Position numbers and translations under genes: made by a program. A model generated the notes under the pieces. The model worked only from the letters and a program-made list of their open reading frames with translations. It did not search any database and was not told the DNA's origin. This document shows positions 50,381 to 59,733 of a stretch of 64,000 nt of DNA, in pieces. The stretch is from an uncultured Verrucomicrobiae bacterium. GTDB lineage: Bacteria > Verrucomicrobiota > Verrucomicrobiia > Chthoniobacterales > Terrimicrobiaceae. The stretch spans positions 672,001-736,000 of the forward strand of contig CAVPOC010000003.1 of the NCBI GenBank assembly GCA_963706955.1, in the 5' to 3' direction. Positions within the stretch are counted from its first letter, which is position 1; every line of letters starts with the position of its first letter.

Positions 50381-51808
50381 CTAATATCGATAGTAATCCG
50401 GCTTGTACGGACCTTCCAGGGGGACGCCAATGTAGGCAGCCTGCTTCGGCGTGAGGGTGGTTAGCTTCGCGCCGACCTTTCCCAGATGGAGGCGGGCCAC
50501 TTCCTCATCGAGTTTCTTAGGGAGCACAAACACCGCCGGCTTGTAGACATCCCTGTTCTTCCAAAGGTCGAGCTGGGCAAGCGTTTGATTGGAGAAACTG
50601 TTGCTCATGACAAAGCTCGGATGGCCGGTGGCACAGCCGAGGTTAACGAGCCGACCCTCCGCGAGCAGAAAGATTTCGTGGCCATCCGGGAACGTATACT
50701 TATCCACCTGAGGTTTGATATTGGTTCGCTGGACGCCCGGGAAACCGTTGAGGTTGTCAACTTGGATTTCGTTATCGAAATGGCCAATATTACACACGAC
50801 GGCCTGATCCTTCATCTTGACGAGATGTTCGATCGTAATTACGTCCACATTGCCGGTCGTGGTGACATAGATGTCTCCTCGGCCAAGCGTCTCCTCGATG
50901 GTTGTGACTTCGTAGCCTTCCATGGAGGCCTGGAGCGCATTGATCGGATCGATCTCTGTGATGATCACGCGGGCCCCTTGCCCTCGGAGCGACTGAGCGC
51001 ATCCTTTGCCAACATCGCCGTAACCGCAGACGACCGCGATCTTGCCGGAGATCATCACATCCATGGCCCTGTTGATCCCGTCCACCAGTGAATGCCGGCA
51101 GCCATAGAGATTATCGAATTTGGATTTGGTCACCGAGTCGTTAACGTTGAAGGCGGGAACGAGAAGCTTGCCGAGCTCCTGAAGCTTGTAGAGGCGATGA
51201 ACGCCTGTCGTGGTCTCCTCGGAGACGCCGCGCCACTCCCTGACGATCTCGTGAAAGACGAACGGGTTCTCCGCATGAATCCTCTTCAAGAGATCCTTGA
51301 TGACTTCTTCCTCATGGCTTGCACTCGGGCTGTTGACCCAATCATCTCCCTCTTCGAGTTCATGTCCTTTGTGGAGAAGCAAGGTGACGTCGCCGCCATC
51401 ATCGACGACCAACTGCGGACCCTTGCCTTCCGGATTCAGGACGGCCCGCCATGTGCAATCCCAGTACTCCTCGAGAGATTCGCCTTTCCACGCGAACACA
51501 GGCACGCCTTCCTTGGCAATGGCGGCGGCGGCATGATCCTGGGTTGAGAAAATGTTGCAGCTTGCCCAGCGCACCGTGGCACCGAGTTCCACGAGCGTCT
51601 CGATGAGGACTGCCGTCTGGATCGTCATGTGGAGCGACCCGGTAATCCGCACCCCCGCCAGCGGCTTCTCCGAGGCATACTTTTCGCGAATAGCCATCAG
51701 CCCTGGCATCTCCTTTTCGGCAATCGAAATTTCCTTGCGCCCCCACTCCGCGAGAGCAATGTCGCGGACTTTGAAGTCGGCTGTTGGCGGTAGAATTGCA
51801 GTACTCAT
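50381..51808 (-). CDS. ahcY: Adenosylhomocysteinase
   Basis: [76 protein letters not shown]. Confidence 0.97.
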
Positions 51809-52224
51809 AATCTTAGTTGATCCACAGATTTCACAGATTCGCACAGATTGTTCTCTGTCCCGAAAACCATACGTTTATACTCGAGGCTGGCAGCTCCGAA
51901 GTTAATTAGAATTCCTCGCCGATGCTTGGTCGCTTTTAGTTGATTTAGGAGCTGAGCTTGGTTAGGCGAGACCAAAGCCGTGGTCGCCTTGATCTCGACA
52001 AGGACGTTTTCAAAGCAAACAAAGTCAGCCCGATAACCACACGAGAGGCGCATCCCCTTGTATTCGACTGGCAGTTCAACCTCTGCCCGGAAAGGAATTC
52101 GGCGCGCCGCAAATTCGATCGCTAAGGCTGCCTGATACACCGCCTCCAGAAAACCATCGCCTAACTCTCGATGCACCTCCATCGCTGCGCCGATGATGTC
52201 ATAGGTTTGCGGGTCATTCTCCAT
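51805..52224 (-). CDS. GxxExxY protein (PD-(D/E)XK nuclease superfamily); an in-frame TTG at 52260 is an alternative start
   Basis: [28 protein letters not shown]...[13 protein letters not shown]...GILINFG. Confidence 0.92.
51821..51849 (+). repeat. Left arm of inverted repeat: 3x CACAGATT
   Basis: TC-CACAGATT-T-CACAGATT-CG-CACAGATT. Confidence 0.9.
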
Positions 52225-52227
52225 TCT

Positions 52228-52257
52228 AATCTGTGAAAATCTGTGCCAATCTGTGGA
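52228..52257 (-). repeat. Right arm of inverted repeat: 3x AATCTGTG
   Basis: AATCTGTG-AA-AATCTGTG-CC-AATCTGTG-GA; reverse complement of the left-arm units, outer 10 bp perfectly matched. Confidence 0.9.
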
Positions 52258-52263
52258 CAAACT

Positions 52264-53436
52264 TTACATCGCCGCGTCGCGCAGGTCGTTGGCTCTGTCT
52301 GACCGCTCCCAAGTCAAGTCGGGATCGTCTTTGCCGAAGTGACCATAGTTGGTGCTCTTTAAGTAAATCGGACGCAAAAGATTTAGCTGCTCGACGATTT
52401 CGGCGGGCTTGAAACTGAAGGTCTGCAGGATTGCGTTTTCGATACGCTCTTCGGGAACGCGATTTGTTCCGAACGTGCTGATACTGACGCTCACGGGCTG
52501 GGGATGACCGATCGCATAGGCGAACTGCACTTCGCACTTCGCCGCCAGGCCTGCGGCGACCACATTTTTGGCCACATAGCGGCCCATGTAAGCGGCGCTT
52601 CGGTCGACTTTGGACGGATCCTTGCCCGAAAAGGCTCCGCCGCCATGGCGTCCCATCCCGCCGTAAGTATCGACGATAATCTTGCGGCCGGTCAGGCCAC
52701 TATCGCCCTGCGGGCCACCAATGACAAAGCGTCCGGTCGGATTTACCAAATACTCGGTCTTGGAGTTTAGCAGCGACTTCGGGAGCACTTTCTTAATCAC
52801 CTTCTCCACCACGAATTTCCTGAGTTCCGAATGGCTGACCTCCGCCGAGTGTTGGGTGGAGACGACGACATTCGAGATGGCGATCGGGTGGCCGTTTTCG
52901 TAGAGCACCGAGACTTGGCTTTTGGCATCCGGCCGCAACCAACCGACTTTGCCGCTTTTGCGCAGCCGGGTCAGTTCTCGGCCAAGCCGATGGGCAAACA
53001 TGATCGGTGCCGGCATCAGCTCAGGGGTCTCATCACACGCATATCCAAACATCAACCCTTGATCGCCGGCACCCTGCTCGGCTGTCTTTTTTCCCTTCGC
53101 TCTTCTGGCATCTACCCCCTGGGCGATATCTGAACTCTGCGCCGTGATGTAGTTGCTCACAAAGACGTGATCAGCGTGAAAGACGTCGTCATCGTGCACA
53201 TAGCCGATCTCGCGGATCGCCTGACGGATAATCGCATTGTAGTCAAACCGCGCCTCGGTGGTGATCTCACCTCCTACAACAACAATGTTGCTCTTCACGA
53301 AAGTCTCGCAGGCGACCCGACTCAGTTTATCCTGCGCCAGGCAGGCGTCCAAAATCGCGTCCGAAATCGTATCACAGACCTTGTCGGGGTGACCTTCACC
53401 CACCGATTCTGAAGAGAAAATATAGCGTCGAGGCAT
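52264..53436 (-). CDS. metK: S-adenosylmethionine synthase
   Basis: [59 protein letters not shown]. Confidence 0.98.
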
Positions 53437-53441
53437 TTACT

Positions 53442-53467
53442 TATTAAAGTATTTGCATATTTTAATA
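53442..53467. promoter_or_regulatory. AT-rich palindrome filling the metK / regulator divergent gap (putative operator and overlapping promoters)
   Basis: TATTAAAGTATTTGCATATTTTAATA matches its reverse complement at 20 of 26 positions. Confidence 0.6.
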
Positions 53468-53473
53468 CGTCTG

Positions 53474-54394
53474 GTGGCCTCGATTGTCAACTCACTGCGC
53501 GCGATCTCTGATCCAACTCGATTGCGGCTGCTCTTATTGCTTGTGGAGGAAGAACTAACGGTCGCGGAATTGCAGGAAATTCTTGGCATGGGCCAGTCAC
53601 GGATTTCAGCAAGTCTCGCCTTGCTCAAGCGGGAGGCGATCGCAAGAAATCGTCGGGTTGGGAAGAACATCTTTTACGCGGTTCGTCCGGAGATCGTCTC
53701 TCCGCTTCGACCGATTCTTGAAGCCGCCAAACTCGAATTGCCGGAGGCTGGGAGCGACAGCGCTGCCATGGCTCTGGCATTGCGCAAACGCAAAGACAAA
53801 GCCGCCGAATATTTTAACAAGTTAGCGGGCAAGTTTGGGCGCACCTACATTCCCGGGCGGTCCTGGCAGGCGTTGGCACATGCGCTGCTCAGGCTTCTTC
53901 CAGCCATGGTGATCGCGGATCTGGGTGCGGGCGAAGGCACCTTGTCGCAACTGCTTGCCCGGAGGGCGAAGAAGGTAATCGCCATCGACAACTCAGAAAA
54001 GATGGTTGAGTTCGGCTCGAACCTTGCGCGCGAACATGGTTGCAAAAATCTCGAGTATCGTCTCGGTGACATTGAAGATCCGCCGATCGAGCACGGGAGT
54101 GTTGACCTGGCACTCTTCAGCCAGGCGCTCCATCATGCCTCCAGCCCGCAGAAAGCCGTGTCGGCCGCCCACGGCATTCTCCGCGATGGAGGCCGCGTCG
54201 TCGTCCTCGACCTGGCGAGTCATAGTCACGAGGAGGCCCGCGAATTGTACGCGCACGCTTGGCTCGGCTTTTCCGAGGTCGAGTTGCAGGAAATTCTGGC
54301 GAAGGCAGGTTTTTCTGAGATCGAGGTCAGCGTCGTCTCCCGGGAAGCGCAGGCTCCTAACTTTCAAACGCTGCTAGCGGTTGCCACCAAGTGA
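53474..54394 (+). CDS. ArsR-HTH plus SAM-binding methyltransferase-fold regulator (SahR-like)
   Basis: LRAISDPTRLRLL...ELTVAELQEILGMGQSRIS; IADLGAGEG; divergent from metK-ahcY; GTG start assumed. Confidence 0.85.
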   Translation: MASIVNSLRAISDPTRLRLLLLLVEEELTVAELQEILGMGQSRISASLALLKREAIARNRRVGKNIFYAVRPEIVSPLRPILEAAKLELPEAGSDSAAMALALRKRKDKAAEYFNKLAGKFGRTYIPGRSWQALAHALLRLLPAMVIADLGAGEGTLSQLLARRAKKVIAIDNSEKMVEFGSNLAREHGCKNLEYRLGDIEDPPIEHGSVDLALFSQALHHASSPQKAVSAAHGILRDGGRVVVLDLASHSHEEARELYAHAWLGFSEVELQEILAKAGFSEIEVSVVSREAQAPNFQTLLAVATK

Positions 54395-57577: not shown

Positions 57578-57835
57578 TCCATCTGCTTCTTTCGAGCAAA
57601 CCCACTTCCTGTCAAGAACGCATTTCCCCCCATCGAAACAGGGAGACGCCCGAATGTTAGCCTCGCTCTTCGTCTTCTTCCGAGCCGCTTAAACCAGCTT
57701 AGAGAACTCAACGCAGGTGCGGCCCAAGGGCTAATTGGGTCGCTGGTCGCGCTAGCTTGATCTATGTCAAGGATTCTCTTGACGCGCGCGCTTCCACGAT
57801 TGCGGACCGGCGGGGAACATGACAATAATCAGGCC

Positions 57836-59733
57836 ATGCCCGCTCCTACCAAAGCTCCCCAAGTCAAGGCCTCTCGAGCCATCAGCAAACCCAAGCCGTC
57901 GACCACCGGCGGGCCGAAATCCCGAAAGCCTCTCGCCAAGAACAAGAATCTGATCACGTGGGTTGAGAAGATGGCCAATCTCACGAAACCGGCCGCGATT
58001 CATTGGGTTGATGGTTCCGAGAGCGAGAACGAAGCGCTGTGCAATGAATTGGTAGCCGGCGGAACATTTACCAGGCTGAATGAAAAGCTTTGGCCGGGTT
58101 GTTTCTATGCGAAATCGGATCCGGGCGATGTGGCGCGCGTGGAGGAGCGGACCTTTATTTGTTCGCTCTCGAAAGACAACGCCGGCCCAACGAATAACTG
58201 GATGGATCCTTTCGAGATGCGGCGCAAACTCAAAGGGTCTGTTCAGTGGCTGCATGCGGGGACGGACGATGTACGTGCTGCCATTTTCCATGGGTCCGAT
58301 TGGTTCGCCGATGTCCCAAATCGGCGTCCAGCTCACCGACTCGGCCTACGCGGTGGTGAACATGCGCATCATGGCGCGCATCGGTCTGCCGGTCTTCCAG
58401 GAGATCGACAAGAACCTCCAGACGGGTCGTGCCTTGCATGCATTCCGTCGGTGCTCCGTTGAAGCCGGGCCAAAAGGATGTGCCCTGGCCATGCAATCCC
58501 GAGAAATATATTGTCCACTTTCCTGAGACGCGTGAGATCTGGAGCTACGGATCCGGCTACGGCGGCAATGCCTTGCTCGGGAAGAAATGCTTCGCGCTGC
58601 GAATCGCCTCGAACATTGCGCGGGATGAGGGGTGGATGGCCGAACACATGCTCATCCTCGGGGTGGAAGATCCAAAGGGCGAAAAGACCTATGTGGCTGC
58701 CGCCTTTCCGAGCGCCTGCGGCAAGACAAACTTCGCCATGCTCATCCCGCCGCCGCACTTTCAGAAAGCCGGTTGGAAGGTCTGGACTGTCGGCGACGAT
58801 ATCGCGTGGCTGAAACCCGATGCCAACGGTGGCATTCGCGCCATCAACCCGGAGACTGGCTTCTTCGGTGTCGCGCCCGGGACCTCCGCCAAGACCAACC
58901 CTAATGCCATGGCTGCTCTCGCGAAAAACACCATCTTCACGAACGTTGGTCTCACTCCAGAGGGCGGCGTCTGGTGGGAAGGCATGACTGACGAGCCTCC
59001 CGCGGAGTGTACCGATTGGCAGGGCAAGCCGTGGACACCCAAAATCGCCAAGGAAACCGGCGCGAAGGCGGCTCATCCGAATGCCCGCTTCACAGCACCG
59101 GCCGCGCAATGCCCAACCATCGATCCCGCTTGGGAAGACCCTGCCGGCGTCCCGATCAAAGCGATCATCTTTGGGGGACGCCGCGCCAGCACCCTCCCGC
59201 TCGTTTGTCAGTCCTTCAACTGGAGCGGAGGAGTTTACATGGGAGCGACGATGGGCTCGGAGATGACCGCGGCGGCGGCCGGCGGCTTGGGACAAGTGCG
59301 ACGCGATCCGATGGCCATGCTCCCCTTCTGCGGCTATCACATGGGCGACTACTTCCGCCATTGGATCAAAATGCAGCGGTCGCTCAGCGAGACCCCTCGG
59401 GTCTTTCTCGTCAATTGGTTCCGCAAAGACGCCGACGGAAAGTTTCTCTGGCCGGGATTCGGAGAGAATATGCGGGTGTTGAAGTGGGTCGTCGATCGCG
59501 TTCGCGGTCGCGCGTTGGGCAAGGAAACACCGCTCGGCTGGCAGCCAGATTACGACGACATGGATTGGGAAGGTCTGAAGTTCTCGCGCGACGATTTTGA
59601 GGAGATTCAGCGCGTCGATGACGAGGCATGGCGAAGCGAGGTCATCGGCCATGAAGAGCTCTTCCTGAAGCTCCATGACCACCTGCCCAAGGAACTCATC
59701 TACGAGCGAGAGCTACTGATCTGCCGGTTGTAG
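57836..59733 (+). CDS. pckG: Phosphoenolpyruvate carboxykinase (GTP), two +1 frameshifts near 58236 and 58420
   Basis: [12 protein letters not shown] / [15 protein letters not shown] / [46 protein letters not shown] lie in three successive frames. Confidence 0.93.

Follow-up and report, generated by a model that had tools for sequence, protein, structure and literature searches.

Introduction

How does a small gene for a predicted nuclease come to lie, bounded by inverted repeat arrays, in the tight junction between two conserved housekeeping genes of a bacterial operon? The question is raised by a stretch of 64,000 nucleotides of contig CAVPOC010000003.1 (this whole stretch is called the window below) from an uncultured Verrucomicrobiae bacterium of the Terrimicrobiaceae, whose genome is referred to as the source genome (G000). 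Here, a block of 437 bp separates metK from ahcY; it carries a single gene of the GxxExxY family, and its ends (the arms) are inverted arrays of the word CACAGATT. A first-pass annotation, made from the letters alone, had offered two readings, a new selfish element or an intervening sequence (IVS) of the mRNA. The reading that we favor, with a probability of roughly one half, is that the block is a promoter-less selfish cassette that spreads through recombination within the conserved flanking genes, metK and ahcY. The family itself is listed with function unknown and multiple transfers in the accessible part of PMC3424549, and is mentioned merely in passing in that of 10.1101/2021.01.26.428298. 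A literature search of mostly open-access texts without supplements gave no description of repeat-armed GxxExxY cassettes and no paper that connects GxxExxY proteins with repeat arms or with operon junctions.

Occupants of the metK-ahcY Junction

The junction was surveyed in 89 genomes, 70 of them from the host family and the other 19 from elsewhere in the order, leaving out G055 (in which metK and ahcY lie apart), G041, G044, G058 and about 12 family genomes with an ahcY match. Remnant labels were given by eye from arm words and hidden Markov model (HMM) matches, and the G012 junction was read by eye. Within the family, the GxxExxY cassette or its remnants occupy 12/70 junctions: two are intact, one is frameshifted, one is internally deleted and eight (two of them doubtful) are reduced to arms, in some cases with pieces of the gene. 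A second kind of cassette, which carries a gene for a four-helix-bundle protein (TIGR02436), is found with TTTTAAG arms in 23/70 (17 full, six remnants) and with TTTTCAG arms in 16/70 (12 full, four remnants). A palindrome (1/70) and short spacers (18/70) make up the rest, and no cassette was found at the junction in the 19 genomes from other families. Decay at the junction takes the route of internal deletion down to arm pairs and single arms, and several of the short spacers resemble fused arm ends and look, from their letters, like deletion scars. Being absent, decayed or replaced in most relatives, the GxxExxY cassette is supported by these alignments as an element of gain and loss and not a fixed gene, in line with the non-fixed element that had been proposed.

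Some junctions have features of their own. The metK-ahcY spacer of L026 (G020) holds, where the cassette would be, a 91-nt palindrome like a repetitive extragenic palindrome (REP). Members of genus g4 (L213, L233, L241, L244, L245, L250) have an extra arm-bounded mini element of 130-220 nt before the TTTTAAG cassette in the same junction. The TTTTCAG-type cassettes of L235, L234 and L249 (G095, G124 and G091) have a TTTTAAG unit at the outer end of the right arm, as would result from a swap with its crossover inside the arm.

Repeated Replacement of Cassettes

In the protein tree, the eight GxxExxY copies of the junction form one clade with moderate support (Shimodaira-Hasegawa-like approximate likelihood ratio test, SH-aLRT, 85), which takes in the copy of L072, a more distantly related host (metK 76% and ahcY 79% identical). 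The four-helix-bundle tree divides by arm word, and within each half the subgroups are mostly by genus. Close relatives with different occupants occur (G036/G066, G095 and G101/G109, G001 and G000/G010, G004/G008). On the tree of metK plus ahcY, the 49 occupied junctions, counted without G012, G011 and G009, require no fewer than 12 changes of type, compared with 16-25 after shuffling, and in three genera approximately unbiased (AU) tests reject monophyly of the hosts that share a type (p-AU 0.003, 8e-6, and 1.5e-5). Because the copies of each type group together across genera while closely related hosts carry different types, the trees argue that cassettes have repeatedly replaced one another at metK-ahcY. 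Differential loss from an ancestor in which the types were stacked is disfavored, as none of the 89 junctions gave both GxxExxY and four-helix-bundle HMM matches. On the same metK plus ahcY tree, the members of g5, and likewise those of g12, do not group together as genera, and family f1 is no clade; the sequences suggest that metK and ahcY have themselves been horizontally exchanged.

A Wider Class of Repeat-Armed Cassettes

The first-pass annotation had asked whether GxxExxY genes in general are flanked by inverted arrays and favor intra-operon positions, and both associations are strong. Inward-facing arrays lie on both sides of 92 of the 150 scorable GxxExxY loci, which come from many phyla, against 0/502 shifted control windows; an exact-word version of the test gave 67/107 loci against 3/389 controls. 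For the arm tests, 84 cassettes were reduced to 54 non-redundant ones, and 97 of their 108 possible flanks were scanned for Pfam neighbors, 57 with a match. Pfam-confirmed upstream neighbors are co-directional in 24/25 cases, with the stop codon -1 to 13 nt from the arm in 19/25, and downstream neighbors in 29/32. Among the junctions hit are purQ-purL, gltB-gltD, yebC-ruvC and, in L072, metK-ahcY again (gene names inferred from Pfam domains). Close GxxExxY relatives lie at a gltB-gltD-type junction in three verrucomicrobial lineages (L064, L065, L076), a candidate second slot. Outward-facing arms occur in about 10/150 loci, probably due to flanking minis, and in L082 the cassette is reversed inside an mnmE-gidA junction.

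The source genome holds two intact GxxExxY genes, 39% identical to each other. The second cassette, with CACAGAG arms, lies at a purQ-purL-type junction (G000:C13:45481-46081; L001); after it come a 129-bp copy of the cassette with an internal deletion and one further arm. Arrays number 50 genome-wide against 5-14 in shuffles. The arrays are not confined to the gene: 41 strict arms stand against two intact genes. The first-pass annotation had named genome-wide arrays apart from the gene as counting against its reading, and they do occur; they nevertheless fit the decay of old cassettes. The interiors of gene-less minis at different sites share no blastn homology, and a recent burst of miniature inverted-repeat transposable elements (MITEs) was rejected on this ground. 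A four-helix-bundle cassette with other heptamer arms is also present (G000:C8:515640-516190; L281:1240-1690); its gene of 117 aa lies between GTTGATG and CAACCAT arms, and the neighbors resemble sdhA and sdhB by translation. In two other genomes, gene-less doublets of about 69 bp with CCACAGAT arms are repeated (G017:C1:57053-57121 and 58877-58945, C18:83339-83407; G007:C287:3159-3225) and are more REPIN-like than the minis of G000.

Anatomy of the Block and Its Gene

All six points of anatomy that had been described for the block, from its arms and open reading frame (ORF) to its flanks and the overlap with ahcY, are present in the sequence (Table 1). The window contains six exact CACAGATT units, all within the two arms (at 51823/51832/51842 on the plus and 52228/52238/52248 on the minus strand). 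By chance 1.65 copies are expected, and 2/100 shuffles reach six anywhere in the window, so that the clustering and not the count is the signal. The outer 10 bp, TCCACAGATT, are identical at 51821 and 52257 and set the length of the block. The flanks outside it add up to 18 nt, the spacer that had been predicted to remain upon deletion, though no natural empty allele resembles it.

Table 1. Features of the metK-ahcY junction in the window (positions counted from the first letter of the window).
Feature	Position	Strand	Description
metK (host gene, upstream flank of slot)	52264..53436	-	TIGR01034
Upstream (metK-side) arm	52228..52257	-	TC + 3x CACAGATT, period 10 and 10; starts 6 nt after metK stop
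GxxExxY gene (139 aa from ATG 52224)	51805..52224	-	TIGR04256/PF13366; runs through downstream arm; TGA on ahcY ATG (ATGA)
Downstream (ahcY-side) arm, inverted	51821..51849	+	TC + 3x CACAGATT, period 9 and 10; 12 nt from ahcY ATG
ahcY (host gene, downstream flank of slot)	50381..51808	-	TIGR00936

The three genes score well against their NCBIfam profiles (metK TIGR01034, 559 bits; GxxExxY TIGR04256, 138 bits with a cut-off of 35; ahcY TIGR00936, 619 bits), and the GxxExxY product also matches Pfam PF13366 (PDDEXK_3) with 129 bits. This single ORF of the block matches GxxExxY / PDDEXK_3 only, without a transposase or integrase match. A promoter and terminator scan of the region gave no match on the coding strand, and an Rfam scan of 20 loci, the metK-ahcY locus included, gave none either. 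The in-frame TTG that had been noted just after the metK stop is present, but is lost in the 96%-identical relative G007; the gene therefore probably starts at the ATG, which gives the same length as the database protein. Among named records the closest is L063, which has 94% protein identity and bears the label Terrimicrobium sp.

A structure model from an alignment of close homologues had a predicted local distance difference test (pLDDT) score of 49.5 and was replaced by one from 118 diverse homologues, with a pLDDT of 92. Its top Foldseek match is Cas4 SSO0001 (E 1e-4), and VIA-align gives BpuSI (Z 8.2, root-mean-square deviation 2.7, 94 aligned) and Cas4 (Z 7.7). These scores are middling (Z no higher than 8.2) and would indicate membership of the PD-(D/E)XK superfamily only; a sequence search against solved structures gave 0 matches and hence no close solved relative. 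E27, D67, E77 and Q91 are invariant among the 118 homologues and K79 is present in 117; all are intact here, including the D...ExK motif (D67, E77, K79) that the annotation had recognized. The product is accordingly modeled as a Cas4/RecB-like PD-(D/E)XK core and is a predicted nuclease.

The dN/dS ratios (nonsynonymous over synonymous divergence) of the gene are about 0.2 between the source genome and G007 (0.036/0.167) and about 0.08 between it and G004 (0.094/1.14), values that show purifying selection. Its dS is like the dS of the two flanking genes, so the cassette is a long resident of the junction and no recent insertion. GxxExxY genes occur in 94 of 102 genomes of the host family, and 7976 of 8000 scored candidates were matches to the family.

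RNA Stem, DNA Ends, and Alternative Explanations

In the main inference of the first-pass annotation, the arms would pair in the transcript and loop the gene out; with RNase III cutting the stem, the GxxExxY piece would be freed and metK and ahcY separated or juxtaposed. The transcript strand does fold into a long terminal stem (z = -3.0, equaled in 1/100 shuffles), and an RNase III gene is present in the source genome. The predicted stem of about 29 bp is bulged and not perfect, however, because the spacings of the left (metK-side) arm, 10,10, differ from those of the right (ahcY-side) arm, 9,10. Among the cassettes, spacing is equal left and right in 44/49, the letter profiles of the two arms are nearly equal with outermost positions concordant in 54/54, and cognate arms are better matched than shuffled pairs (0/5000 permutations), mostly through the outer unit. 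The concordance would suit a transcript stem; matched spacing and outer unit would follow from pairing of the ends as well as from a protein recognizing the two of them, and show no mRNA-strand preference. In Coxiella, according to the accessible part of PMC4990558, the 23S rRNA IVS has a 28-bp stem with tandem GACAGAT heptamers, and in vitro RNase III cuts at the first of these. If an mRNA stem were under selection, G·U should outnumber A·C mismatches on the sense strand; such selection is unsupported because the mRNA-strand mismatches of the 54 non-redundant cassettes are 26 G·U against 36 A·C (p=0.25). The sense duplex, at -44.1 kcal/mol, does not exceed the antisense duplex at -45.2 kcal/mol (sense better in 16/40), and agreement at variable purines is no higher in the same register (111/147) than across registers (232/294), hence no register-specific covariation at the tested position. 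The same strand comparison for four-helix-bundle arms (sense better in 2/27) was left unused, with at least seven windows misplaced and an A/C-rich start bias. The ORF crosses the right arm in 15/29 cassettes, as it does here, and ribosomes that translate this part should unfold the stem. RNA-library contigs (from 4 of the 24 runs listed, covering three studies) bridge the left arm in three runs (X5, X1, and X2) and the right arm in one, with no excision joint listed; such contigs cannot show ends, nor do they exclude cleavage or DNA carry-over. Those of X5 (51702-51883 and 52138-52304, 0 differences) bridge each arm; the middle of the gene has no cover in X5 and uneven cover in the remaining runs, which speaks neither for nor against excision. 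The stop-start overlap with ahcY persists in 5/6 junction copies although the spacer measures 14 or 17 nt; it is also opposed to looping out and suggests, on comparison of the copies, that translational coupling is what protects ahcY from polarity. Loop-out of the gene thus has little support; RNase III cutting without ligation is possible, because the Coxiella repeats are nearly identical to those found here, and on balance an mRNA IVS is an unlikely account of the block.

The arms could also belong to a pair like REP and its associated tyrosine transposase (RAYT), or like Ssn, in which a resident enzyme reads its own arm word, as single-stranded DNA or a cruciform, and scatters or maintains arms while the gene rarely moves. 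Such a pair would account for the genome-wide excess of arrays over shuffles, for the correspondence of two arm families (CACAGATT and CACAGAG) with the two resident GxxExxY genes, for arm words that track protein clades (kin share labels) and for short gene-less doublets recurring in relatives, and the repeat-gene-repeat build is that of ssnA in the accessible part of PMC11893778. It is made improbable by single arms that are tandem direct repeats and not hairpins, by copies in the tens and not the hundreds, by mini interiors without shared homology and by a DNA fold of the region that is non-significant (z = -1.1), and it leaves unexplained why four-helix-bundle cassettes come to take over the same site. 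A mere passenger, host-useful (e.g., in defense) or neutral, might instead sit in a tolerant slot, where repeats ease deletion and ordinary homologous recombination acts with no drive. Long vertical residence under purifying selection agrees with this, as do the lack of a consistent co-conversion signal, the many decayed alleles and the greater frequency at metK-ahcY of cassettes without a known nuclease. We give little credence to a passenger, which leaves three things unexplained: the same arm architecture on unrelated cargo genes, the conservation of arms across many phyla and the outer-unit match between the two ends.

Proposed Explanation

As a selfish cassette without a promoter of its own, the block would be expressed by read-through from the host operon, and polarity on ahcY would be avoided by translational coupling through the ATGA overlap and not by excision. 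The arms would serve as strand-symmetric DNA ends in which the outer unit matters most. Recombination in the flanks may be triggered by a cut of the predicted nuclease, as in homing, and the cassette would pass through a cycle of invasion, long vertical residence and decay that ends when it is lost or replaced. A driving role of the nuclease in this spread is possible and is the weakest step, because four-helix-bundle cassettes fill the same site more often.

Several observations weigh against this explanation. Four-helix-bundle cassettes are commoner at metK-ahcY than the GxxExxY cassette, intact copies of which are a minority there, and the four-helix-bundle gene is not known to encode a nuclease. 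In the QxxxY motif, the source genome has Gln in place of the conserved Tyr (Tyr95; Tyr in 106/118 homologues), which may affect activity. The ATGA overlap is not general, with 6/29 among cassettes elsewhere. Filled and empty pairs reveal neither a target duplication nor a clean pre-insertion allele, because several short spacers look like deletion scars, and no recent copy at a new site was found. In the flanks, at coarse and fine scale, there is no consistent co-conversion tract (three of 30 bins with uncorrected p<0.05), in a scan of low power at species-level divergence. The host tree is imperfect, since metK and ahcY are not fully congruent with genus and family labels. Just two of the 14 gene-less arm pairs tested are significantly similar to either resident cassette, so that descent of such pairs from the resident GxxExxY cassettes by decay is borne out for these two; at four gene-less pair sites the relatives have no GxxExxY gene, and viral loci with a GxxExxY homologue number just two. 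Finally, the Coxiella element has a near-identical word and other cargo (accessible part of PMC4990558), which weakens the notion that each protein reads its own word only.

A wider proposal, tentative and short of even odds, is that an undescribed class of repeat-armed one-gene cassettes homes into, and competes for, fixed housekeeping junctions, metK-ahcY being one for which three cassette lineages contend throughout the family, with GxxExxY as the driver, possibly in trans for the four-helix-bundle cassettes, and that 23S rRNA IVS are members that landed in rRNA and survive through RNase III cuts in the arms. This would offer an origin for these sequences, whose origin and ORF function are called unclear in the accessible part of PMC4990558. 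If the drive is real, it would be an unrecognized source of allele exchange in core metabolic operons, and a very large orphan nuclease family would gain a concrete candidate substrate. The metK-ahcY slot provides natural filled, decayed, swapped and empty alleles; new here are a junction contested by three cassette lineages and a test of the arms for strand symmetry.

Comparison With Known Systems

The comparisons in this section refer to the accessible parts of the cited texts. Like ORF-bearing 23S rRNA IVS (Coxiella helix 45, Leptospira; PMC4990558), the block is sporadic, about 430-440 nt long, and combines one small co-directional ORF with inverted arms able to form a bulged stem of about 28 bp, with the heptamer GACAGAT there and CACAGAT here. 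The S23p/four-helix-bundle cargo of these IVS is replaced here by GxxExxY, and is found in the TIGR02436 occupants of the same junction. Unlike them, the block lies in the protein-coding operon metK-ahcY and not in rRNA, and has no Rfam match; its PD-(D/E)XK cargo is under purifying selection, and its ORF crosses one arm and overlaps the next start codon.

With the free-standing homing endonucleases of T-even phages (seg/mob; PMC2988022, PMC10448857) the block shares a promoter-less position between conserved genes with expression (presumed here) from a host polycistron, and a patchy distribution among relatives, with replacement at the site (by other endonuclease genes in the phages). It differs in its location on a bacterial chromosome, in its GxxExxY and not GIY-YIG or HNH cargo and in its repeat arms; here also cassettes without a known nuclease share the site, and the low-power scan of the flanks gave no consistent co-conversion tract. 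Ssn with NTS/SRM (PMC11893778), REP-RAYT and TIRtrons (PMC3733652) resemble it as small single-domain nuclease genes with repeats on both sides and genome-wide. Unlike Ssn and REP-RAYT, the block encodes a predicted PD-(D/E)XK fold and no HUH or GIY-YIG enzyme, and has tandem direct words in place of hairpins, a low copy number and a tight operon-junction placement. From insertion sequences (IS) and MITEs it differs in having no transposase or integrase gene and no near-identical copies at several sites. By profile score, its gene is a full member of the GxxExxY family (TIGR04256, PF13366), and the block itself fits none of IVS, IS/MITE or RAYT/Ssn. By analogy, its build appears most like an ORF-bearing rRNA IVS and its distribution most like a free-standing homing gene.

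Neighboring Genes in the Window

Divergent from metK, and 16 nt off its start, lies a gene for an ArsR-methyltransferase fusion (53453-54394, plus strand), which we take to resemble a SahR-type regulator and which would make the promoter region very compact. Further along, a phosphoenolpyruvate carboxykinase-like gene (57764-59733, recognized by eye from its translation) is seemingly split over two frames near 58330-58430, possibly by a frameshift or an assembly error.

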